From the NCBI GenBank assembly GCA_938045545.1, contig CALIBN010000016.1, positions 27,914 to 91,913 of the forward strand: a DNA stretch of 64,000 nucleotides, given 5' to 3'. The DNA is from an uncultured archaeon. Lineage in GTDB: Archaea > Thermoproteota > EX4484-205 > JAAOZP01. Positions 1 through 60,950 of this stretch are shown here, in pieces; positions within the stretch are counted from its first letter, which is position 1, and every line of letters begins with the position of its first letter. The notes below the pieces were generated by a model. It did not search any database and was not told the origin of the DNA. It saw nothing but the letters and a program-made list of their open reading frames with translations. A program made the position numbers and the translations under genes.

Positions 1-1740
1 AGCCTTTTCCATGGGCCTAGGAATCGGGTGAACACGCCTAATGGCGTGCTATTCCCGCCTTCACCTGGTTCTCGCCTTTACGGCACTCCCCAGGCTTAAA
101 CGGTTAAACAGGGCAGCAACCCTGCTCACCCTATCCCAAGCCGTCGGCTCCTAGGCCTAGCGTCGCCGCACGTACCCGTCTGGTGCCGGAATATTAACCG
201 GCTTCCCCTTATCGGCCTACTCGTGTTAAGAGCAGGCCTTAGGACCGACTAACCCCCGGCTGACGACGCATTGCCGGGGAACCCTGGCCCTTACGGCGGT
301 TGGGATTCTCACCCAACTTTGCTGTTACTACCACCGGGATCTACACTTCGACTCGGTCCACTGGGCCTCACGGCCCAGCTTCTCCCCAAGCCGAACGCCC
401 TCCTACCAGACACGCCGCCACGCGGCGTGCTCCAGGGTATCGGTAGCCAGCTTAAGCCCCGTCCATTTTCGGGGCCTTGCCTCTCGACCGGTAAGCTGTT
501 ACGCACTTTTTAAGTGATGGCTGCTTCTAAGCCTACACCCCGGTTGTCTAAGAGGCAAGACGCCCTTTGGTTTGACACTTAGCTGGCATTTGGGGACCTT
601 AACCCTGGTCTGGGTTGCTCCCCTCTCGGTCCACGAGCTTAACCCGCGGAACCCCACTCCGCCCTTCTCAGGAGCACGCTGGTTCGGAGTTTGAAAGAGA
701 GGCGGGCCCTTTCGAGCCCTTACCACTCAATCAGTGCTCTACCCACCGTGCCTCCTCTAGGCGGGCTGAGCTGCGACTCACTTCGGAGGGAACTAGCTAT
801 CACCGAGCTAGATTGGTTTTTGTCCCCTAGCCCCAGGTCAGAGGAACGAATTGCACGTCAGCACCCCTACGGGCCTCCACCAGGCTTTCGCCTGGCTTCG
901 CCCTGCCCAGGGCTAGATCGCTCGGTTTCTAGTCTTACCGTCATGACTAAGGGCGCTCAACACACCCCCCACCTCCAACCTTTAAAGGCTGTGCGTGGAG
1001 TCGGTTTCCCTACGCCTACGAGGCTTGAAGCCTCTTAAGCTCGCCATGACGGTAAACTCCCCGGCCCGTGTTTCAAGACGGAGCGCATGACCCTGGTACC
1101 CTTCATCGCGGAGAGCCGTCTCCAGCTCCCGCTTTTGAAGGGAGTAACCCTTTCAGGCCATGCACGTCTATAACTGCCTGGTTTCAGGCGCTTTTCACCC
1201 CCCTTCCGGGGCACTTTTCAGATTTCCGTCACCGTACTGGTGCGCTATCGGTCTCGACGAGTACTTAGCCTTGGAAGCAGCTGGCTCCCTGCTTCCCATA
1301 GCATATCCGAGCTATGGTACTCGGGCTGAGAAGCCATCCTCCTCCAGGCCTTCCCCTACGGGGCTGTCACCCTCTATGGCGGACCATTCCAGGTCCCTTC
1401 GGGTTGGCCCGGATTGGAGGGAACGCTTCCGCCTCAACACCACATTACAAGCGTGTCATCCACGCCTGTTTCGGTTTGGGCTGGTCCCCTTTCACTCGCC
1501 GTTACTCAGGGAGTCTCGTTTTGATTTCCCTTCCTCCGCCTACTCAGATGCTTCCTTTCGGCGGGTTCCCCCACCCTCCTTGCGGAGGGTGTTCCCCGAG
1601 CTTTAGCTCGGGGAAGGTTACCCATTCAGCGATCCCCGGATCAACGGATGCATGCTCCTACCCGGGGCGTATCGCCGCTTGCCACGGCCTTCATCGGCTG
1701 TCGAGCCGATCCATCCACCAGGCAGCGTCCATGTGCCACG
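1..1740 (-). rRNA. rrl: 23S rRNA, 5' portion (runs off window start)
   Basis: Reverse complement near 1740 reads GCCTGGTGGATGGATCGGCTCGACAGCCGATGAAGGCCGTGGCAAGC, typical of an archaeal 23S 5' end; conserved LSU segments throughout. 5' end approximate. Confidence 0.97.
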
Positions 1741-1891
1741 GCCCCAACTTCCCGTTGGAACAGTCTGTGACCTGCCTGTGACGCACTCACAGCCCAAAAT
1801 TATTGGGCTCATGCATTCGCCTAAGCGTTAAGCTTAGGGTCATTACAACGATGCTGTTGAACATGTTTTAAGGGTCCACCGTCCTAAACGT

Positions 1892-3389
<1,498 letters not shown>

Positions 3390-4723: not shown

Positions 4724-4810
4724 TGGACCGGGAGGGACTCGAACCCTCGACCCTTCGAGGTCACCCATTCCGAGTGCAAGTCGGACATTCTACCACTGAA
4801 CTACCGGCCC
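4724..4810 (-). tRNA. tRNA-Ala(TGC), 15-nt intron at 44/45 (4753-4767)
   Basis: GGGCCGG/CCGGTCC acceptor with G3:U70; BHB TCGG-AA^T..TCGA-AG^G; splicing restores the AGGTC variable loop. Confidence 0.92.
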
Positions 4811-5281
4811 TGAGGCTTCTACTTCCCTCAAGGATATATAAATGCTTCCCATGAGGAAGGGAAAGTTTAAAACGGGACTTCAACGTTTAATTTTTTGCAT
4901 GATCTCTCAGGATTAGTATACATAGCATCAAGTAAACCACTCATGCGCCGGGTGTATCTTAAAAAGGGCTAAGCCAGTATACGAGCAGATAAGTGACGAG
5001 ATAAGGAAGACCTAGGAGAAGCAAGTAGAATGGTTCATCAGTAGCGGTGCCCTGATGCTGAGGGTCGTAGTTGGTCTGCTCAAGACCAGCCTTCCGCTCA
5101 AATGGAGCATTATCTACCTTTTCAAAGAAGCCCTTAGAAAGATTCTTAAAAAGAAACTGGGCCTCAGGGATATTGCCAACTTCTGCTATGAACTGAGGCA
5201 TGAGAACTGATCGTGGTATGAGATTGACGCATGTTTTTCCATGCTTTTTTAAAACTTTTTAAAGAAAAGATGGGGGGTTTG

Positions 5282-5513
5282 ATGAGAATGCGTATTGCGC
5301 ACGGCCCTTTGAAGTGTGGGAAGTCATGCCGCAGGTGCGATTACCTTAAGCTCGGGTTATGCGCTGGATGCCACCTTCCCAAGAGGAACCTCTGCTTGGC
5401 TTACCAGTGCATCGTAGGAAGGTTAGAATCATGGGAATAACCCTCAGATGTAGGGCCTGCCCGCTTGCCCCGGCTTGCGTAAAGTCCGGCAGGTTCACCC
5501 CGCGCGCGCGATA
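5282..5513 (+). pseudogene. Cys-rich N-terminal module of toxin-like gene (frameshifted, truncated)
   Basis: MRIAHGPLKCGKSCRRCDYLKLGLCAGC then shifted LRCRACPLAPACVKSGRF; clear paralog of 22529-22966. Confidence 0.75.
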
Positions 5514-5521
5514 GCGAGAAC

Positions 5522-6660
5522 GTGACGAAGGTTGAGGAGAAAGGTGTGCACAGCTTCCTCGAGTACGATGGTCAAATACTGCTCTCAACCATAATGCCGG
5601 ACAAGCTCCTAACCGAGGAAACCTTCAACTTCACCGTAAGCTTTGTGAAGAAAGGGGGCTTCGACGGAGTAGTCGGGTGGGACATGCCCGTTTACGCTGA
5701 CTATCCCAAGGCATTAAACCTATCCAATTTGGTTAAGGCTACGCTCCTGACGATGAGGTATGTGGAGGAGGGGATACCAACAATACCATTGTTGAAAGGC
5801 GGAGACTCTTCTGAGATAGCGCTTCACGCCGAGTGGTTGGAGAAAATAGGCTTCAAGAGGATTGGGCTCCACGCCACTGAGTATATTCTAGCTAGAACTC
5901 GTGGCGGCATTGGGATTTATGGAGACTTAGCTAAAGTCGCCAACAACCTCTACTCACTGGTGCTGGTGAAAATATACGAGATTGGAGCGAAGCCACTGAT
6001 AATGGGAGCCTTAAGCCCCAGGGGCCTCCGCGACTACCACGAGTCCGTGGAGAGATCTCTCTAGCGGGAATGTCTTGGCTAATAGAGGCTAGGAAGTGGC
6101 GTGCTTACGTGGGCACATCCTCTGGCCTGGGCATCGTAGACCTAGGGAGGGGCATCATGGAGTGTAAGTGCAAGGCATGTTTAGGCAAGTCTCCGAGTCA
6201 GGTCGTTGAAAACCAGGATGACATAGCGTGGCATAACTTGGTCCTGCTCAAGGAGTATGCGGAGAAGGGTAAGCTTGATGAAACGCCTGTTTACAACATG
6301 ATACTGGGGAAGGATGATACCTTGGCGGTTGTGGGGGATCTGCACATAGGCATCTCCCAATCCCTTTGGCTGCCGTGTTTGAGGATGCTTAGGAAAATCC
6401 ACCCAACCCACCTGGTTCTCCTAGGGGACGTGTTCGACTTCATAAGGGGGAAGCCGGAAGCATCGCAAGTCATTAGCTTCCTCAATCTCCTGAAAAACCT
6501 AAACGTCCGCATAGGATACGTATCAGGATGCTCGGATTCATACGCCTCCAGGTTTCTAGAGGCTCTGGCGAGGCTCGCATTTACGGAGGGGCCGAGGGAA
6601 CCCCAGCTCTACAATCCACAACTAACGCTGGTGGAGGCAATGAGGATTCCTCCCTGCTGA
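5522..6660 (+). pseudogene. TGT/DUF4417-like barrel with Zn site plus calcineurin-like phosphoesterase (split into 5522-6064 and 6070-6660)
   Basis: WDMPVYADYP..GIPTIPLLKGG; CKCKAC..WHNL TGT-type Zn motif; VVGDLHIG and LLGDVFD metallophosphoesterase motifs. Confidence 0.6.
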
Positions 6661-7860
6661 TGATGACGGGAGACCTGTCGGAGGAGGAGAAGCAAGAAAT
6701 AGAGGAACATATGAAGGAGGAGCGTGAGGAGCATGAGGTAGTAACGTCCAATAGGTTCGTCCTTCTGCAAGGACCTGGGGAAGAAGAGGAGGAAAAGGAG
6801 GAAGTAACTCCTCTAACGCTCGACTGGGAGATAAGGGAGATTGAGGCACTGGCCGAGGGGTATCCTCAGATGATCGAGAAGCTGGAGAATCTGGAAGAGG
6901 TATTGAACGAGGAGGAGAAGAGACAGGAGGAACTACTTAGGGAGGAGTTGTTCGAAAGTATTGCGAGGAAGTTGAGGAGGAGGCGGAATCAGAAACTCCT
7001 CTTGAAAGACTGTTTAAAGAAGCTGAGGAACTGGCGGGAATCAAAGAGGTTGGGAAGCAGGTTGAAAAACCTCTTGAAAAGCCTGTGGAATACGAGAAAC
7101 CCGAAGAGACGCATTATGAAGAGCCCGTAGAAGAGCTCGATATCCTAAAGGAAGAATTCGAAAAGCTAATGGGAGGAGAAGAACCTGTTGAAGAAATCGC
7201 CGAGGGCTTCGAAGAGGCTTGTGGAGAAGAGCTGGAGGAGAAAGTCGAGCTGATTGAGGAAGTTGAGGAAGAAGCCGGTGAGTTAATTGAAGAGGTTGTT
7301 GAGGAGGAGCTGGAGGAAAGGGCTGAGCTAGTTGAGGAGGCTAGAGAAGAAGTTGAGGAAGTGGTTGAGGAGGTAGCCGAGGAAGCTGGAGAATTTGTTG
7401 AGGAAACTGCTGAGAAAGTTGTTGAGGAGGTTGGGAGAGAGGAAGAAGCCGAAGAGAAAGAGGAGTTGCTTGAAGAAGAAATTGGAGAGACTGCCGAAGA
7501 AGTCGTTGAGGAAGTCGAGGAAGTCGGTGAGTTAATTGAAGAGATTGAAAAAGAACCTGAGGAAGGGGCTAAAGAAGAGATTACAGAATACGAGAAACCT
7601 AAGGAAGAGTTAGAAGGACACCGGAGGCAGTGGCTGCAGGAGAAGGGGAGGGGCCTGAGAAGGAAGAGGTCGAGAAGATTGTTGAAGAAAAACTGAGGAA
7701 GTAATCGTTGATAGGTTTGAAAGAACGATATTCAAGTCCGGCCATATAGAGCGTCACGGGGAGTTTGAAAAAGGCCTTTACTTGATCAGAGTAAAGACAA
7801 AAGATGGAAAAATCTTCGAGTGGTCAACTAGGAAGGATAAAAAAGACAATGCCCTTAACA
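6660..7860 (+). pseudogene. Glu-rich low-complexity linker (frameshifted)
   Basis: EEVEEE-type repeats in ORFs 6528-7130 and 7085-7696; purine-rich GAGGAA repeats. Confidence 0.65.
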
Positions 7861-7861
7861 C

Positions 7862-8737
7862 TTGAGTTCCTGGGGAATTCTTAAAGGAACTAGTTGGAAA
7901 GAATGTGGAGATTACTATCGTCAAATACAATTACTTACTGCACTTTCAAAAGGTTCGAACTTCTACTTCTGTCCAAGAGAGGGGCTTATTGTAGAGGGAA
8001 AGAAGATAGAATTAGAAAAGGTCGAGCCACTGAGCTGGAGTGAGAGGCATGGAGCATCTATGATGGTCAAGCTGGTGAAGAAAAGCATGCAGGGCGCCGA
8101 AATATACCTCGCATTCTTTGAGGACGGAGAAGTTAGTATAGTCCTCAGCAAAGAATCTTCTATATATGGAACTATGTTTAGGGTTACATTAAGAGTTGAG
8201 GGGGGCTTCTTGATAATAAAATACAAGGATCAAGAAGTGTGGATCCCGATTATTAAGCTTTGGCAAGGCTCATGGGAGCTTAGCGACGAAGAAATTAGGA
8301 GAATTAAAGAAGTTACAGATAATGCAACAAGACTAGGAAATGCTGGGAGAGATAAGGTTGAGGCCGTCATACGAGCTGGAGGGATTCCGGAAATAGAAAA
8401 CGCGAAAGAAATATACAAGGAAGTCTACATCAGAAACGGGCACGGAAGAATTATAGGAAAGGTAGACTTGGTAGTTGAAAAAGAGAACGAGCGCTTAACA
8501 GTCTTAGAAGTTAAGACGACCACGATTTCTGATTACCTTGAGGATAATCTTAAGGATGGTATAGAGGATTTGGAGGAAAAATATAAGTTGCTGATCAATA
8601 AGTACAGCCTCGATTTGAGAAAGATCGGCTTAGGCGTGAAGAAGGCGGAAGATATTGAAGCCTACATAAGCTTCTCGGTCTATTTCGACATAAAGAACAA
8701 GAAGGCAAATGCAATATGGAGCGCATTATCGCCTTAA
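7862..8737 (+). CDS. C-terminal PD-(D/E)XK nuclease toxin-like domain (fragment of a larger gene)
   Basis: LGNAGR helix, VDLVV..LEVKTT catalytic pattern. Confidence 0.7.
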   Translation: MSSWGILKGTSWKECGDYYRQIQLLTALSKGSNFYFCPREGLIVEGKKIELEKVEPLSWSERHGASMMVKLVKKSMQGAEIYLAFFEDGEVSIVLSKESSIYGTMFRVTLRVEGGFLIIKYKDQEVWIPIIKLWQGSWELSDEEIRRIKEVTDNATRLGNAGRDKVEAVIRAGGIPEIENAKEIYKEVYIRNGHGRIIGKVDLVVEKENERLTVLEVKTTTISDYLEDNLKDGIEDLEEKYKLLINKYSLDLRKIGLGVKKAEDIEAYISFSVYFDIKNKKANAIWSALSP

Positions 8738-8749
8738 AATAGATAGGAA

Positions 8750-9427
8750 TTAAACGAGATACTCGAAGCTCCAGCCCCTTTCCTTCTCCAGCTTCTCAGC
8801 TTCTTCCTTCGTCAGCACTACTACAATTATACGCATTATATCCCTACACTTGACCTGATAATCCTGGTACTCAGTGTCCTCAATGAGCTCGTTCAATTCT
8901 CTGAGACCCATGTCCTGGATGTAGTCGTGCAACAAGGCGATCTCAATGCTATGCCTCCTGCCTCTAAAGTCGAAGCTGACTTCCTGTATTAGCCACTTGG
9001 ATGCCGAGGGCGTTAACCACCTTGAGCTTATATTCGTAGGCTGAAAAACTCCCCTCGATATCCTTGCAAGCCTTTCCAAGATAGCCCTTCCCATCTCCTC
9101 GTCCAGCATCGTCTCCGCATCTTCCTCTAAGATCCTCTTGGTGTCGAAGACTATCAGTGTCCCGTCTATTTCAGTATCACTCTTTTCCATCCAATCCTTC
9201 TCATATTTCATGAGGGACTCTCTGAGAAGAATTCCATGAGACGCCCCATATATCGACTTCTCCTTCTCATCCCACCATCTATGTGAATAGTTTATCTCTC
9301 CGTTAAAAATCTTCTTCAATATTTCCTCAGAGGATAGGTCAGAATAGTCCTGGAAGAAGCTCATCTTCCTAAGATATTCAATCGAATTTACAAATCGTTT
9401 CCTGAGCTCAGGATCTACCATTCTCAT
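8750..9427 (-). CDS. Putative immunity protein, convergent to the nuclease
   Basis: Intact ORF; paralog at 20782-21541 shares SIEYLRKM.FF.DYS, LARISRG.F and EAEKL.KERGW. Function is inferred. Confidence 0.6.
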   Translation of the reverse strand: MRMVDPELRKRFVNSIEYLRKMSFFQDYSDLSSEEILKKIFNGEINYSHRWWDEKEKSIYGASHGILLRESLMKYEKDWMEKSDTEIDGTLIVFDTKRILEEDAETMLDEEMGRAILERLARISRGVFQPTNISSRWLTPSASKWLIQEVSFDFRGRRHSIEIALLHDYIQDMGLRELNELIEDTEYQDYQVKCRDIMRIIVVVLTKEEAEKLEKERGWSFEYLV

Positions 9428-9580
9428 TAACAATTAACGAAACTCCAGTTTTTAAGCGTAACTATCCTCAAATCAAATATATCCTTCTCAGCATTACTAC
9501 TACGCCTTGATTGGCCATTAAGCATTCCCATAACAATTACGATCACTTGATACTGAAACTGGAAAGAAACAAGCCAAAAA

Positions 9581-9681
9581 GGCCGCCGCCGCGATTTGAA
9601 CGCGGAATCAGTGGCTCCACAGGCCACCGCGTTAACCTGGTTTAGCGGTGGTTTTTAGCACGCACATACGCCACAGCGGCC
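9581..9681 (-). tRNA. tRNA-His(GTG), encoded G-1, 25-nt intron at 14/15 (9642-9666)
   Basis: GCCGCTG/CGGCGGC with C73; BHB GGCG-TA^T..CGCT-AA^A; splicing gives D-loop AACCAGGTTA. Confidence 0.88.
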
Positions 9682-10022
9682 ACGGTAGATTAAACGTTGA
9701 AGCCCCGTTTTAAACTTTCTCCTCCTTGAGAAGCTGAAGAAAGAGAGGTTGGAAGTTCGAATCTCGGCAGCGGCCCTTTAACAACCAATATTTGGAAACA
9801 AGCCTCCTGATGCGAGTAATGTGGATTAGAAAATAATTAATTCCAATATTTACTGAGATTAAGGAATAAATAATACTGTAGACTAACACTCCTATTCCGC
9901 TTATTTCTAAATCTTCCCCTCGAACCACCACTAGCTTCAAACATGCTCGACCCAGCCTGCCCACCTTCTAAAGGGTTTTCGGCGAAAACGTTTTAAGCCC
10001 CTTTTCCAAAGAAAACTGTTGA

Positions 10023-10114: not shown

Positions 10115-10977
10115 TCCTTCAAAAATATGGATCATTAAGGTTGTTGTTGAGCCCAGCTGGACGTGTCTGCTTAAATCTTGGAAGTGTTGAGGAGCAGGTG
10201 TGGGTTTGATTGCGTAAGCTGCCCCTATTTTAAGAAACCTTGTATCGGCTGTGTGATTGAGACTCGCTTGGTGGATAAATGCGTCAGGGACACTTCCTAC
10301 ACTGGGATAACGCATCCCAAGGGCTCCTGCAGGCTTAGGCCGTATTGACCGATTGGAAGCAGGGATAGGCCTCCCACGATGCTGATTTCATCTCCTAGGA
10401 AGAAAGTAAATGACAAGGATAAGGATCCCTAGGTTTGTGCTTGAGATTGATATCACTGGTCAAAGGTCCTTGATACGGGGACATGGTTTCCAAGTATCGA
10501 CAGTTTTCCTGCCCCTATGGCAACTGTTTGCAAATGAATTTAGCGCACGCTGATGACGAGGAAAAGAGAACATATAGACATAGCCTGTCATTTGTGAAAG
10601 AAGCTACGAAAAAGGGAGCAAATTCCCATTCAGAAATTTAAGAATCAACAGAAGGTAAAGCCTCACTCGAAGGAGAGAAAACTCGCAATAACCTCGGCCA
10701 CCTCAGTATTCTGTGAGCTAGAATCAACGCTCTTTAATAAGGTAATTATGTGGGCAGGCAATTGCGACCTCCAATCTCTCTTGGACTACATTCACTTCCT
10801 TGCCAATGGATTAGTTGAACATAAGATTGCCACCCGCATAATAGGATACGATTTGGAAAACAACACTGAGAAATTAGCGATCGAAGATTTGTATACAGAG
10901 GAAAACAGAGTAAAAGAGGTTTTCCTATGGCTGGCTTAATGCGGATGCTTGACGCATTACGACGTTCAGCTTAAACG

Positions 10978-11070
10978 AGCCCCAGGTGGGCTTCGAACCC
11001 ACGCCCTCCTCCATTGACGCTTTTCCAGCATTACCAAGGAGGCGCTCTAACCAGGCTGAGCTACTGGGGC
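10978..11070 (-). tRNA. tRNA-Thr(GGT), 18-nt anticodon-loop intron (best fit 38/39)
   Basis: GCCCCAG/CTGGGGC; BHB TGGT-AA^T..GTCA-AT^G restores UUGGUAA loop. Confidence 0.9.
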
Positions 11071-20781: not shown

Positions 20782-21541
20782 ATGAGCCTCATGAGCATTA
20801 ATAATGGGATGGTAAATCCCGAGCTCAGGAAACTTTTCGTCGATTCAATAGAGTACCTTAGAAAAATGGATTTCTTCAAGGATTACTCAAATCTATCCTC
20901 GGAGGAGATTTTCGACAAGATCCTTAGTGGGGAAATAGACTATGGGGACCAGTGGTTCATCGAGGAGTGGCCCGAGGAGGAGCGGAGGAAATTCAGTACT
21001 CAAGGGCAAATCTTGAGGGAGCTACTTAAAGGCGCGAAGAACACTGGATGAAGAAAAGCATTTACGAAGTGGATTTGGAGGTGGCGTCTTTCGATACCAA
21101 GAGGATCTTTATAGAGGATCCTAAGACGGTCGTAAGAAAGGGGATATGTAAGATGTTGCACATGAAGCTCGCGAGGATCTCCAGGGGAGCTTTCAATTCC
21201 AGGTACATTAAGGAGGAGTTGATAGAATGGGAGAAACCCCCTCCGGTGTTGAGGGCGGCGTTGGGGAAATGGTGTTCCCCTACGGTGGCTTTATCTTCAA
21301 GGTATGCTTTGAGTTCGGAGGGAAGGAGCATCTGGCCGAGTTCTACAATAACTGGAAATACCTTTACATGGTCCCGCTCATAGAGAGGATAAATGAGCTG
21401 ATCAAGGATACCGGATATCAATATTACGGGTTGCATAATGAGGACATAATCTTAGTTGTCCTAAGGGAAGACGAGGCCGAGAAGCTTAAAAAGGAGAGGG
21501 GTTGGGCACTTTACTTGCCTCAAGTTAAGGCTCATGCTTAG
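20782..21541 (+). pseudogene. Putative immunity protein paralog (two frameshifts)
   Basis: Three consecutive ORF pieces align to 8750-9427. Confidence 0.8.
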
Positions 21542-22532
21542 GTTTCTCCACAATGTTCTCTACAGTCTCCTCAATATCGTCTAAGGTGCATTTAACACCC
21601 TCTTTAAACTCAGTCTCGATAATTTTATTCAGGTTCTCAAGGCATATAGCTACCGGAATGCCAAACGCGGCTTCCCATAAATGCTTCCACTTATCCTCGG
21701 TGAAATAATTATTCAGATCTTTCTTTGCTCTGCTTAAGCTACGTTGATAATAATCGGATACGATCGTGGTCTTGACCTCAACTATCGCTACTCACTTCCC
21801 CTTATGGTAAACGTAGAAGTCCGGTCCCTCTGTCTCATATCCCTGGACGACCTTGAGCTCTTCCTTAGGTATTCCGGTCTTCCTAGATACTACCTCCTTA
21901 ACGTCTTCCTCTCGGTAAAATCTTGCATAATCCCAGCCGATTTCCCCAACCGGTCCTTTAACCCTTGGATCGTCTATCGAAAACCCTTTGTTAATTAGGC
22001 CCCCTACATCTTCAACCCTCACCACCAGAACCTTCTCGGGGTCCTCCAGGAATACCTCGTAGCGAGATGCGGCTTCCCCCACCCCCATATAGTATTCTAT
22101 CGTGAGCTTCTTTCTATCCACCTCGTATTTTGTGATTTTAATCCGCCTATATTTGCTGATCATTATCCTTGGAATGTATTCCTTGGACTTCCTGTAGACC
22201 AGCTTGATTAGGTGCTCCTTACCTTTGTAATCCTTAATCGCGAAGGTGACGGCTGGTCCATGTTCCGATCTGTCGTAATGCGGGTTCCTCTCCAACGTCA
22301 ATTTGCAAACCTCCTTCCCATCCACGACCAGCTTATATTCGCCTGAGCTGAATGCGATGTCGAAGGACGCATTCGCTTCCTTAAACACGGTTTTAACGAA
22401 CTCATGGGTGGTGATTTTGACGATCTTTATCTCAACCTCCTCACCACTCCGACCTATGTTGCTTGGAAGGTCGAACTCAAATGTCGGCCCATATTTCTTG
22501 TAAAATGTCCTTCTCTTGACCTCGATTTTCAC
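21525..22532 (-). pseudogene. Second toxin-like C-terminus with PD-(D/E)XK domain, in-frame TGA at 21792
   Basis: KGPVGE..GPDFYV..K*VAIVEVKTTIVSDY; reading frame continues past the stop to TAA at 21525. Confidence 0.75.
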
Positions 22533-22966
22533 TCAACATGATTCCCTCCAAGGTACTGCTTGAGTTGTTCGCTGGGTATTCTAATCCTCAAGTTATCTTT
22601 ATTCCGCCTAAAAACGCATCTCACCTTAAGGCCCTCCGGGTAATTAGCGAGCTCGCTGGGCTCCTCCCGTGCTGGCTCTCCGCCCTCCCGCGCGCGCAAG
22701 ACTCCAGCATCAGGCTTAGCTTGAGATATGCACCCGCCCTTGGGGGGGACGAACCTGCCCGACTTAACGCAGGCCGAGGCGAGCTGGCAGGCCCTGCATC
22801 TAAGAGTTAGCCCCACGATTTTCACCTTTCCTACGATACACTGGTAAACCAGGCATAAATTCCTCCTCGATGAGTGGCATCCAGTGCATAATCCGAGCCT
22901 AAGGTAATCGCATTTGCGACAAGGCTTTCCGCACTTGAGGGGCCCGTGCGCGACTTGCATTCTCAT
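22529..22966 (-). pseudogene. Cys-rich head fused by deletion to the pre-toxin segment
   Basis: MRMQVAHGPLKCGKPCRKCDYL.. paralog of 5282; upstream ~45 nt also conserved between copies. Confidence 0.7.
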
Positions 22967-23190
22967 GAACTCATCACCTTTTCTTTAAAAGTTTTAAAAA
23001 GCATGGGAAAATACACTAGGTATCGTCGGAAAGGGATTCGCCTCATCTAGGGTCTTTATAGAGTCGCCCAGCCTTCGTGGTTTCAGGTCGCCATTCTTAC
23101 CACTGAGAGGGTCTCGTCGTACCTCAGGTATTTTTTTATAAACGAGGAGTAAAAGCTTTATTTGGCCTCTGCATCAACCTTACTTTAGAC

Positions 23191-23317
23191 GTCGGGGTAG
23201 CCAAACCTGGTTAAGGCGCGAGATGCGCGATGTACGCGAGCCTGCTAAGCTCGTGGCCCATGAGAGTTCCATGATGGAACCACGAGGGCCGTGCGGGTTC
23301 AAATCCCGCCCCCGACG
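23191..23317 (+). tRNA. tRNA-Ser(GCT) with two introns: 30/31 (23223-23240) and variable arm (23265-23286)
   Basis: GTCGGGG/CCCCGAC with G73; BHBs CGCG-AG^A..CGCG-AG^C and CATG-AG^A..CACG-AG^G (one mismatch); splicing leaves GGCCC-ATGA-GGGCC arm. Confidence 0.88.
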
Positions 23318-23548: not shown

Positions 23549-26167
23549 ATGGAGAAAAGGAAGGAAAGGAAGGTTGTTAAGAGAGACGGCAGGGTCGTGG
23601 ATTTCGACCCTAACAGGATTAGGAACGCTATTGCAAAGGCAATGGCGAGTGTGAAACAGTATGATGAGAAGACTTTGGAGAAGGTTGTTAACTACGTGTT
23701 AAACGTTTTAAACGGGAAGTATGAGGCCGGGGAGACTCCGCATGTCGAGGATATTCAGGATGTGGTTGAGCTTGCCCTTATGAAGTTTGATCTTTACGAT
23801 GTTGCTAAAGCCTATATTCTTTACAGGAAGGAGAGGGAGAGGGTAAGGGAGGAGAAGAAGGCTCTTCTTCAGAAAAGCTTTGTGGACGAGGTTGATAAGG
23901 AGTTTTCTGTTAACGCGATCAGGCTGCTTGTGAACCGCTACCTTCTTAAAGATGAGAACGGTAAGCTCGTCGAGTCGCCTAAACAGTTGTTTCAAAGAGT
24001 AGCCTTAACCGTTGTGATACCGGATATTCTTCACGACCCGAGGGTGTTCTCTAAGGATGGAGGATTAACGGTGTTTCCGAGAGAGGATTTCAACGCCAGC
24101 CACTATGCGAATAAGCTTGGCCTAGGAAAGAGCGGCAACGAGTATGCTGTCACCTGGAACGAGTATCATTTGGAACGCATGAAGGCTCTTTACGACGAGC
24201 TTAATTCTCAAGGCAGGATGAAGGTTTCTTGGAGCGGTTTTCTCAGAATGCTTCTTTCAGGCGAGTTTGAAAACTATTACGAGAATTTCAGGGCCTATTA
24301 TGATCTTATGGTTTCTAAGAAGTTCATGCCAAATTCACCGACGCTGTTTAACGCTGGGACTAGGCTTGGCCAGCTTTCAGCTTGCTTCGTGTTGGATGTT
24401 GAGGACAATATCGAGTCTATTATGAATGCTGCAACCCAGGCGGCCATCATCTTCAAATCCGGTGGAGGCATTGGGATAAACTATTCTAAGCTGAGGCCCG
24501 CGGGCGACATTGTCTCAAGCACCTCAGGAGTGGCGAGTGGCCCCGTTTCATTCATGAGGATAATAGACACCGTCACAGACGTGGTTAAACAGGGAGGTAG
24601 GAGAAGGGGGGCGAACATGGGGATTCTCGAGGTTAACCATCCGGATATAGAGATGTTTATAACGGCCAAGTCTGAACGGGGGAGGCTTGAAAACTTCAAC
24701 ATATCTGTCCTCATAAATGATGATTTCTGGGACTACTTGGAGAAGGATGTACCATATCCGCTTGCAAACCCAAGGGATAGGAGGGTTTGGAAGACTATTC
24801 GTGCCAGAGACGTTTTCTGGAAGATTGCGGAGATGGCTTGGAGAACAGGCGACCCGGGTGTCCTCTTCTTGGAAAACATCAACAGGAGAAACATAATGGC
24901 GAAAAATAAGGGTCCAATAAAGTCCACTAACCCCTGCGGAGAGGAACCCTTGTATCCCTATGAATCCTGCAACCTGGGTTCGATAAACCTGTATGCGTTC
25001 GTGAAAAGAAGTAGAGAAGAAGCTGTCTTCGACTGGGAGGAGTTTAGCCGAGTAGTTGGGATCGCCCTCAGGTTTCTAGACAACGTGATAGATGTGAACA
25101 AGCTTCCTTTAAACGAGATAGAGCGTGCGACTAAGCTTACGAGGAAGGTTGGCCTAGGTGTCATGGGCTTGGCCGACTTACTTTTCGCCCTGAGAATACC
25201 TTACAACAGCGAGGAGGGCTTCAGGCTGATGGGCAGAATAGCGGAACACTTGACTTTCTACGCTATGAAGGAGTCTTGCATGCTTTCTAAGGAGCGCGGC
25301 GCCTTCCCGCTGTATGCTGAATCATCTTACCCTGACGGCGAGATGCCGATTGAAGGCTACTATCATAAGGACTGGCAGACTCTCCCCTGGAGCGACCTGC
25401 AGCAGGAGATAACAAGGTTTGGAATAAGGAATGCGGAGGTGACCACCATCGCTCCAACCGGCTCTATTTCCATGCTGGTTGACGTTTCCTCTGGGATAGA
25501 GCCCCAGTTTGCCCTAATATATGAGAAGAGGGTTAGCGTAGGAACATTCTATTACGTGGATGTTGAGTTTGAGAAAGCACTTAGGGAAAATGGTCTTTAC
25601 GACGAGAAGACGCTTAAGCTGATTTCAGACAACGGCGGTTCGCTCGTGGGCCTCGACTTACCCGAGGAGCTACGCCGCGTGTTCCTAACCGCATACGATA
25701 TACCCTGGTGGGACCATGTGAGGGCTCAGGCAGAGTTCACGAAATGGATTTGCGCCGCGGTCAGTAAAACCATAAACATGCCGAACTGGGTTACTGTAGA
25801 GGATGTTCAGAAGGCTTTCACTCTGGCACGTGCAATGAGAGTAAAGGGAGTCACCATTTACCGTGACGGCTCCCTCCCGTATCAGGTCTTAGTCACACCT
25901 TCCTCGAAACTAGGAAAGTATGCGAAGATCGTGGACAACTCGACTATTGAAATCGCAAGGACCCTGGGAGTCGAAATAAAAGATTTCGGAGAAGAATCGG
26001 AAGGCAAGACATCAAAAACGGCAGCCGCCTCGGAGAAACCTGTTCTAATTCTTAACGAGAATAATAAGTCTGACCAATGTCCGAGCTGTGGCAGTAAAAG
26101 GCTCATCATGGAGGGCGGGTGCCTAACCTGCATCGACTGCGGTTGGAGCGTATGCCCCATTTCCTAG
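23549..26167 (+). CDS. nrdJ: Class II (AdoCbl) ribonucleotide reductase with ATP cone
   Basis: VVKRDGR ATP cone, PNSPTLFNAG, LSACF, TNPCGE, APTGSIS, C-terminal Zn ribbon; no intein. Confidence 0.96.
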   Translation: MEKRKERKVVKRDGRVVDFDPNRIRNAIAKAMASVKQYDEKTLEKVVNYVLNVLNGKYEAGETPHVEDIQDVVELALMKFDLYDVAKAYILYRKERERVREEKKALLQKSFVDEVDKEFSVNAIRLLVNRYLLKDENGKLVESPKQLFQRVALTVVIPDILHDPRVFSKDGGLTVFPREDFNASHYANKLGLGKSGNEYAVTWNEYHLERMKALYDELNSQGRMKVSWSGFLRMLLSGEFENYYENFRAYYDLMVSKKFMPNSPTLFNAGTRLGQLSACFVLDVEDNIESIMNAATQAAIIFKSGGGIGINYSKLRPAGDIVSSTSGVASGPVSFMRIIDTVTDVVKQGGRRRGANMGILEVNHPDIEMFITAKSERGRLENFNISVLINDDFWDYLEKDVPYPLANPRDRRVWKTIRARDVFWKIAEMAWRTGDPGVLFLENINRRNIMAKNKGPIKSTNPCGEEPLYPYESCNLGSINLYAFVKRSREEAVFDWEEFSRVVGIALRFLDNVIDVNKLPLNEIERATKLTRKVGLGVMGLADLLFALRIPYNSEEGFRLMGRIAEHLTFYAMKESCMLSKERGAFPLYAESSYPDGEMPIEGYYHKDWQTLPWSDLQQEITRFGIRNAEVTTIAPTGSISMLVDVSSGIEPQFALIYEKRVSVGTFYYVDVEFEKALRENGLYDEKTLKLISDNGGSLVGLDLPEELRRVFLTAYDIPWWDHVRAQAEFTKWICAAVSKTINMPNWVTVEDVQKAFTLARAMRVKGVTIYRDGSLPYQVLVTPSSKLGKYAKIVDNSTIEIARTLGVEIKDFGEESEGKTSKTAAASEKPVLILNENNKSDQCPSCGSKRLIMEGGCLTCIDCGWSVCPIS

Positions 26168-60633: not shown

Positions 60634-60950
60634 CTTTCTGTTTTCTACATCGAAATAAACTGAGACGCCTATATAGGCTTCAATATCCTCCCCCTTCTAC
60701 ACGCACAAGTTAACATCTTCTAGGTCCAGGCCATACTCATTAGCGCACGCGTGCACGCTAACATAAACCCGCGCGGGGGCTTGAAATAAGGCTTTCCAGT
60801 GTGTATCAAGTCCTCAACATGCTTGCTCAAGGCTTTCCACATCCTCTTTAAAGGTTAGAGTAAACGACCAGGAGAAAGTTGTGAAAGCGATTATTGGGCG
60901 CAATGATGAAGAGGCTCTCACTTTTTCGCCGTTCCCCTCTCTTACTTCCT

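Follow-up and report, generated by a model that had tools for sequence, protein, structure and literature searches.

The window analysed here, a 64,000-nucleotide stretch of DNA from an uncultured archaeon (GenBank assembly GCA_938045545.1, contig CALIBN010000016.1, positions 27,914 to 91,913), carries two decayed copies of a gene module that ends in a predicted nuclease domain and faces a small gene on the opposite strand. An earlier reading made from the letters alone, referred to here as the sequence-only reading, had proposed that this module is an undescribed polymorphic toxin system. The window opens with an rRNA operon (1-3389), several of its tRNA genes contain introns (ARAGORN, Rfam), and the database names of homologs label the lineage Brockarchaeota. 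Copy 1 is bordered on the left by an intron-containing tRNA-Ala gene (4724-4810, minus strand; ARAGORN, Rfam) and on the right by a tRNA-His gene (9581-9652, minus strand; ARAGORN). The plus strand between them holds a run of overlapping open frames (5228-8737), and the minus strand holds an uninterrupted open reading frame (ORF) of 227 amino acids (8750-9433), with its likely start at the ATG at 9421. The tRNA borders, the ORF pieces and a convergent gene of ~225 amino acids had all been noted before and are present.

Read along the plus strand, copy 1 begins with an AT-rich, promoter-like stretch (5235-5279) that is common to copy 2 (22968-23011) in the form of the inverted repeats I6 and I7 (33 nucleotides, 79% and 76%). 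It is followed by the remains of a gene termed A (5282-6648), in which a Cys-rich head runs to ~5510, a TGT/DpdA-like barrel carrying a CxCxxC..HN zinc motif spans ~5520-6330, and the N-terminal half of a metallophosphoesterase extends to 6648. The remains of a second gene, B, comprise a Glu-rich linker part (6645-7690), from which the start of B and its first ~65 amino acids have been deleted; a small beta-barrel domain (7695-7955), previously called the 'pre-toxin' segment, whose translation meets an in-frame stop at 7863-7865; and a middle beta domain with a type-1 tip of predicted PD-(D/E)XK nuclease fold (7952-8737). This tip carries the motif VDLVV...LEVKTT and is 63% identical over 263 amino acids to that of the closest intact ortholog, found in genome G006. 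In the frame 7862-8737, put forward earlier as the tip ORF, the first ~30 codons are out of frame. The convergent gene, partner 1, encodes a candidate immunity protein and is the sole intact gene among both window copies.

The intact form of the module is provided by seven loci in related genomes, where gene A is followed directly by gene B and a convergent partner lies opposite B. Gene A has open frames of 585-661 amino acids containing the Cys-rich head, the TGT/DpdA-like barrel, and the metallophosphoesterase, while gene B (727-855 amino acids) contains a conserved N-terminus, the Glu-rich linker, the small beta-barrel, the beta domain, and the predicted PD-(D/E)XK nuclease tip. The partner gene, of ~225 amino acids, runs antiparallel to B, and the two abut or overlap at their 3' ends. 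It is through these relatives that the labels TGT, metallophosphoesterase and nuclease, which the sequence-only reading had given to copy 1, find support, whereas the window's own pieces match no Pfam or NCBIfam family at cut-off (best matches DUF4417, E 0.096; PDDEXK_1, E 0.0058; Cas4, E 2.5e-4). Gene A matches the TGT model of PADLOC (E 4e-8), and a paralog with head and barrel comes close to Pfam TGT (E 2.3e-5, 24.1 bits against a cut-off of 26.3); the CxCxxC...HN zinc motif was read by eye. Intact gene A also matches PF12850 (Metallophos_2) at E 1.5e-5 (25.4 bits against a cut-off of 27), a family precomputed on 12 of 26 homologs. A search of solved-structure sequences with gene A gave nothing meaningful, and no Pfam family was found on B. 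The gene A barrel resembles the DpdA/TGT superfamily in its matches to TGT models and in its zinc motif, but differs in that the same protein also carries a Cys-rich head and a putative metallophosphoesterase. The loci examined showed no genes for 7-deazaguanine synthesis near the module.

Distant paralogs of gene A, 45-49% identical, also occur in genomes G002 and G007 (loci L086, L087, and L088), where they are followed by genes of ~390-440 amino acids in place of the Glu-rich B. A further gene of ~200 amino acids is present at two of these three loci, and none of the downstream genes matched the module queries. The genes following these paralogs may encode different effectors that work with this enzyme.

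The fold core and the motif of the tip support its assignment to the PD-(D/E)XK nuclease superfamily. The tip and partner families are both rare; searching all 1.84 billion representatives with HMMER yielded 15 relatives of tip 1. The AlphaFold2 model of the G006 tip (350 amino acids) has a predicted local distance difference test (pLDDT) score of 91.8 and falls into three parts. The first is a small beta-barrel that matches PHS018 (2glw; Z 6.6, root-mean-square deviation 3.7, 78 aligned residues), a swapped-hairpin, AbrB-like barrel, and the second is a beta-rich middle domain. For the third, the C-terminal domain (~195-350), most of the 50 best rows of the VIA comparison are restriction-endonuclease-like (Z 5.2-7.6), and the neighbours include 3ijm, AF1548, HsdR, SduA, CidB, Hjc, NucS, Cas4, HamA, and CdiA-CT (4g6u, Z 6.1). 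The best Foldseek match of the tip is SfsA (E 1.3e-3). Because all fold scores are below Z 8, the range where the tool warns of a common arrangement, the assignment draws on the uniformity of the list together with the motif, which occurs as (E/D)xK in 20 of 25 tip carriers.

The tips differ on a conserved chassis. The intact A-B loci carry tip 1 in three cases, tip 2 in two, a tip linked to imm3 (a second small-gene family described below) in one, and an unmatched tip in one. Two B proteins of genome G007 are 94, 78, 78, 58, and 53% identical in their first five windows of 75 columns and then fall to 10-28%. The same tips cap not only B but also a giant multi-pass membrane protein, a second chassis that goes beyond the sequence-only reading and has full-length frames of 2340-2448 amino acids in relatives. 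For three giant proteins that end in different tips, identity is 48-86% across ~1000 columns but 17-31% in the last ~450-500. Truncated orphan tips with small genes of their own lie downstream of some giant genes. On contig C9 of genome G000 the order is giant C-terminus, imm3 gene, orphan chimera of junction and tip, and second imm3 gene, and tip fragments forming orphan arrays are also present at L078 and L079. In the window's own genome, pieces of the giant protein were found on three short contigs.

No Pfam family was found on the giant proteins. A crude hydropathy scan combined with the positive-inside rule predicts an N-terminal bundle of 7-8 segments, a loop of ~1000 amino acids directed outward, and then ~3 glycine-rich segments; for the loop, an atlas search gave weak leads to carbohydrate-binding and CARDB domains (score ~0.8). 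In G000 (contig C51, L068:4944-6419, minus strand), the start of the giant gene is overlapped by a gene for a protein of 491 amino acids whose N-terminus has a hydrophobic segment. This gene lies upstream of the giant gene at all nine loci examined (L074-L082), with weak similarity at two divergent ones (44% and 31%), and its product may belong to the same machine as the giant protein. At another G000 locus (contig C10, L023:4485-5071), broken DEIH helicase-like and Cys-rich fragments lie upstream of an intact tip 1 gene of 575 amino acids. A helicase identity for the giant N-terminus, suggested by these DEIH-like fragments, was not borne out. The fragments are unrelated to the giant chassis.

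The partner family has 59 homologs, none with a Pfam family, and all of them come from this kind of archaeon, save one protein named as Infirmifilum. A search of 41 genomes detected the partner in 14 of the 16 other members of the genus and the giant chassis in 11 of 16, and neither in any of 24 genomes outside the genus. The module families are restricted to one genus-level group labelled Brockarchaeota. The AlphaFold2 model of the partner has a pLDDT of 92.5 and no solved relative at the levels reached by Foldseek (best E 0.014), a wide VIA comparison (best Z 2.7), or a profile search of solved-structure sequences (nothing below E 0.3); a protein atlas search with the partner returned unnamed clusters only. 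A prediction of the complex between the G006 tip (350 amino acids) and its cognate partner, run without controls, scored 0.02 against a mark of 0.32, a result that speaks neither for nor against binding.

In a collection with one genome per species, 56 partner loci were found, all in metagenome-assembled genomes of this kind of archaeon: 35 of full length, 20 partial, and one without a match on the expected strand. A tip match within 400 nucleotides faces 29 of the 35 full-length partners; five have none, and one has too little flanking sequence. Partners at least 48% identical to partner 1 stand opposite tips of cluster T0 at 13 of 13 loci, and those at most 45% identical stand opposite T1 tips at 15 of 16. 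Partner subtype accordingly follows tip cluster in 28 of 29 facing pairs, counts that are not independent because the related genomes are kin; two of the loci are also near-duplicates, and several supplied the tip queries. The second small-gene family, imm3, is located downstream of other tips in the same direction.

Copy 2 (20.8-23.0 kb), which the sequence-only reading had described as a second version with a diverged tip, has the promoter-like, head and partner DNA in common with copy 1 (33 nucleotides at 76-79%; 142 nucleotides at 78% and 83 nucleotides at 81%; and 135 nucleotides at 74%, respectively), but it lacks the barrel, the metallophosphoesterase, and the linker of copy 1, and its tip and partner are broken. 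A minus-strand frame (22529-22966) comprises a head of 78 amino acids, 75% identical to the head of A, a short linker, and the start of a type-2 tip cassette; residues 97-141 of this frame match the segment that precedes tip 2 in a giant protein of genome G002. The tip itself (21528-22544, minus strand) is 49-55% identical to intact tip 2 proteins across its stops. Its lesions are a 1-nucleotide loss in a G run near 22545, a TGA in place of Trp at the start of the cassette, and an in-frame stop directly before VAIVEVKTT, the VEVKTT counterpart of the LEVKTT motif of copy 1. The partner, convergent with the tip (20782-21541, plus strand), is recovered as residues 5-74, 78-131, and 148-222 in frames 1, 3, and 2. 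Judged by these lesions, the tip and partner of copy 2 are pseudogenes. A third module remnant in the window is a lone fragment of a tip C-terminus of 40 amino acids (60634-60753, minus strand), 70% identical to a type-1 tip of genome G016 (E 2.5e-14). Across the genome as a whole, the head has nine matches, and the partner is represented by 15 stretches at ~11 places, three of them uninterrupted and of full length.

Conserved chassis with variable tips, an adjacent co-varying gene, and orphan cassettes are the features by which polymorphic toxins are known. On balance, we read both window loci as decayed copies of a lineage-specific polymorphic nuclease-toxin/immunity module, an interpretation that we hold with moderate confidence. 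The reading proposed earlier thus survives in its core, since relatives combine a chassis that is conserved with tips that vary and partners that vary with them. It does not survive in the form given, in that the chassis consists of two genes, the window copies are pseudogenes, and no known trafficking domain was found. Toxicity of the tip, its neutralisation, and its delivery are inferred. The tip and the neighbouring small gene behave as one exchangeable cassette, in which the nuclease tip would damage DNA in cells without the matching small protein and the small protein would bind and block its own tip. Recombination at the conserved junction may exchange tip and immunity together, and immunity genes may outlast toxins, as with partner 1 in the window.

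Several observations weigh against this interpretation. No secretion-related family and no known secretion or trafficking N-terminal domain was found on A, B, or the giant proteins with Pfam and PADLOC, and a crude hydropathy scan gave no hydrophobic segment in A or B. Taken at face value, the three segments of the second cluster would leave the tip of the giant protein inside the cell, a prediction made for one protein by a scan too crude to settle its topology. Curated nuclease families stay below their cut-offs on the tip (PDDEXK_1, 17 against 22 bits; Cas4, 20.9 against 65; PDDEXK_4, 18.3 against 22.3), in addition to the low fold scores given above, and the motif reads ExE rather than ExK in four of 25 tips and is absent from one. 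The partner is convergent rather than downstream, unlike most bacterial systems. Under coarse clustering, tips and immunity families are not one-to-one, as T0 occurs with both families and one T1 tip occurs with imm3, and the kinship among the loci reduces what the pairing counts can carry. The four ExE tips (L058, L075, L056, and L055, in G007C12, G007C14, G006C30a, and G007C11b) may be inactive or may use a lysine elsewhere.

A more specific proposal, which we offer tentatively, is that of an undescribed inter-cell nuclease-toxin system with two platforms. In the first, a membrane protein of ~2400 amino acids with a large outward domain and glycine-zipper segments would deliver its own C-terminus without a known secretion machine. 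In the second, a soluble acidic toxin would be coupled to a DpdA/TGT-like base-exchange enzyme joined to a phosphoesterase. Both would draw on one pool of tips, and their immunity proteins would have new folds.

Predicted archaeal polymorphic toxin systems have reportedly been listed by Makarova and colleagues in mBio in 2019. Our literature search found no report of toxins in Brockarchaeota, with those lists standing outside the comparison, and these may already include the present families. The convergent arrangement has a bacterial parallel in the operons of pore-forming colicins. There too the immunity gene is convergent with the toxin gene, so that its expression does not depend on the toxin promoter. 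Colicins, however, are plasmid-borne bacterial pore formers, and the module described here is unrelated to them in sequence and domain make-up.

The bacterial polymorphic toxin systems with nuclease tips, which include CdiA-CT/CdiI, Rhs and related systems, provide a close comparison (Zhang et al. 2012; PMC3482391). The likeness lies in the large conserved N-terminal chassis, the abrupt switch to a variable C-terminal nuclease, the small cognate gene, and the orphan cassettes. Compared with these bacterial systems, the present module is archaeal, has no known secretion or trafficking domain, and uses two unrelated chassis, one of which is a soluble acidic protein encoded after a TGT-like enzyme with a metallophosphoesterase. 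In addition, its main immunity family is convergent with overlapping 3' ends, and no curated family matches its tip or either of its immunity families. According to PMC8416519, polymorphic toxin systems are predicted in many archaea and none has been characterised experimentally; the present module follows the same general concept. The same paper describes VARTIG of Thermococcales, in which a long first gene with a C-terminus made hypervariable by recombination is followed by variable small genes (PMC8416519). VARTIG is likewise an archaeal locus with a variable C-terminus and small genes, but its variable part is an Ig domain and it lacks a toxin domain, whereas in the module here the part that varies is a predicted nuclease with a paired small gene.

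Against this background of predicted but uncharacterised archaeal toxins (PMC8416519), the present lineage offers a compact and testable case. Its assets are a confident tip model, two small candidate immunity families, natural tip swaps within one genome, and two unrelated carriers. Should the tips prove toxic and the partners protective, the module would reveal a means by which uncultured archaea of hot springs compete or police kin, and one would have to ask how a protein that carries no known secretion signal gets to its target. An association with a TGT/DpdA-like enzyme would be a novelty among such toxin systems. For annotation, the module accounts for a group of multi-copy genes labelled 'hypothetical' in these genomes and for many of their pseudogene fragments.

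The strongest alternative is that A, B, and the partner form an intracellular conflict system for anti-virus defence, abortive infection, or addiction, in which A, as a DpdA/TGT-like base-exchange enzyme with a phosphoesterase, would sense or mark nucleic acid, B would be the nuclease effector, and the partner would be an antitoxin, with no delivery from cell to cell. We regard this as a serious rival, though rather unlikely. In its favour, neither A nor B has a signal or membrane segment, and the TGT model matched by A (E 4e-8) belongs to a library of defence systems. The structural neighbours of the tip also include SduA (8ps4, Z 6.7), HamA (8vxy, Z 5.3), Cas4 (4ic1, Z 5.8), Card1, and Can2, and the families are multi-copy, patchy, and often decayed, as in defence islands. 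However, the PADLOC matches are confined to TGT on A, with none on B, the partner, or the giant protein, and the cassettes of relatives adjoin housekeeping genes (for an exosome subunit, ribosomal protein L10e, SufBC, and TFE) rather than defence genes. An intracellular role is also at odds with the presence of the same tips on a giant membrane protein, whose ~1000-amino-acid loop is predicted to face outward and whose gene follows that of a secreted protein, and the orphan tip/immunity arrays and abrupt breakpoints between chassis and tip are typical of polymorphic toxins.

The decay of copy 1, which the polymorphic toxin interpretation takes as real, was scored against the G006 ortholog. In tblastn, frame 2 matches residues 14-337 of G006 gene A, interrupted by two stops, and frame 1 matches residues 324-538, while residues 539-649 are missing; the match to G006 gene B sets in at 6645 with residue 97 (frame 3) and passes to frame 2 at 6998. 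Copy 1 has at least seven frame changes (~5420, ~5500, ~6040, ~6985, ~7620, ~7687, and ~7948), the first of which is a 1-nucleotide indel between the heads of copy 1 and copy 2, and the nonsense codon in the small beta-barrel replaces a Trp. A deletion of ~0.5 kb across the A/B junction joins A, cut off after residue 538, to B at residue 97 of its stop-to-stop frame. Lost with it are the final ~111 amino acids of A (in the phosphoesterase), the stop codon of A, and the start of B with its first ~65 amino acids. By their frames, genes A and B of copy 1 are pseudogenes.

These lesions were compared with other sequencing runs over the covered parts of the stretch, where run X2 is another sample of the same study and runs X3 and X4 belong to another study; no RNA run was present among the runs listed as containing this DNA. 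Contigs of X2 match the window exactly over the lesions at ~5420, ~5500, ~6645, and ~7687. Runs X3 and X4 contain a strain ~95-97% identical to the window that has additional bases (A after 6047, G after 6970, A after 7687, and TAAA after 7945), and all four insertions sit where the window shifts frame. The identity of the X2 contigs over four lesions and the extra bases carried by the X3/X4 strain at four frame-change sites indicate that the decay of copy 1 is real and recent. It is therefore highly improbable that the frame changes are assembly or sequencing errors in a gene that is truly intact. Several changes do fall in short homopolymer runs (for example of A at 7687 and of G near 22545), and the best-matching run, X1, is possibly the source of this DNA and so not independent. 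Yet the X2 sample reproduces four lesions, one of them the junction left by the deletion at ~6645; indel errors explain neither the nonsense codon nor the loss of ~0.5 kb; large adjacent genes are unbroken (for example the ORF of 872 amino acids at 23549-26167), and paralogous copies elsewhere in the genome are broken at different places.

The pieces of copy 1 had been joined into one large gene by the sequence-only reading, which proposed a search of related genomes for intact versions. That search returned C-termini that vary across loci, as expected for a polymorphic tip, but separate genes A and B at all seven intact loci. Because the stop of A is directly followed by a B start with the peptide [ML]GQ[FL]SAELN at seven of seven loci, with a frame relation that varies, the locus is organised as a two-gene operon rather than as one giant gene. 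A single head-to-tip fusion protein as the intact form is very improbable. In its favour, A and B share a frame with one stop codon between them at two of the seven loci (L058 and L089), but they overlap or abut in different frames at L062, L056, L083, and L085, and each of the seven has kept both the stop of A and, at this conserved peptide, a start codon for B.

A separate three-gene module occurs in the same genome, comprising a protein with Cys-rich head and TGT-like barrel (361-370 amino acids), a LAGLIDADG_3 protein (~303 amino acids, E 1.6e-16), and a gene of 224 amino acids without a family. It is present at seven loci, of which four are intact (for example L020:637-2644 and L021:567-3242) and three are broken, and a decayed remnant of it lies in the window at 10178-10939, between tRNA-Thr and another tRNA gene. 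Relatives across the order carry head-barrel genes that are 25-31% identical to gene A, and gene A looks like a derivative of the head-barrel family of this LAGLIDADG_3 module.

Within the window, copy 1 and tRNA-His are together enclosed by a 38-nucleotide inverted repeat (4854-4891 and 9689-9726, 92% complementary), one arm of which lies directly beside tRNA-Ala and the other directly upstream of tRNA-His. This repeat could be a common promoter element or the trace of a rearrangement. Finally, Rfam calls a tRNA of 127 nucleotides at 23191-23317 that is absent from the ARAGORN calls, and the anticodon of the tRNA at 10977-11070 was left unassigned by ARAGORN; both of these tRNA genes probably contain introns.

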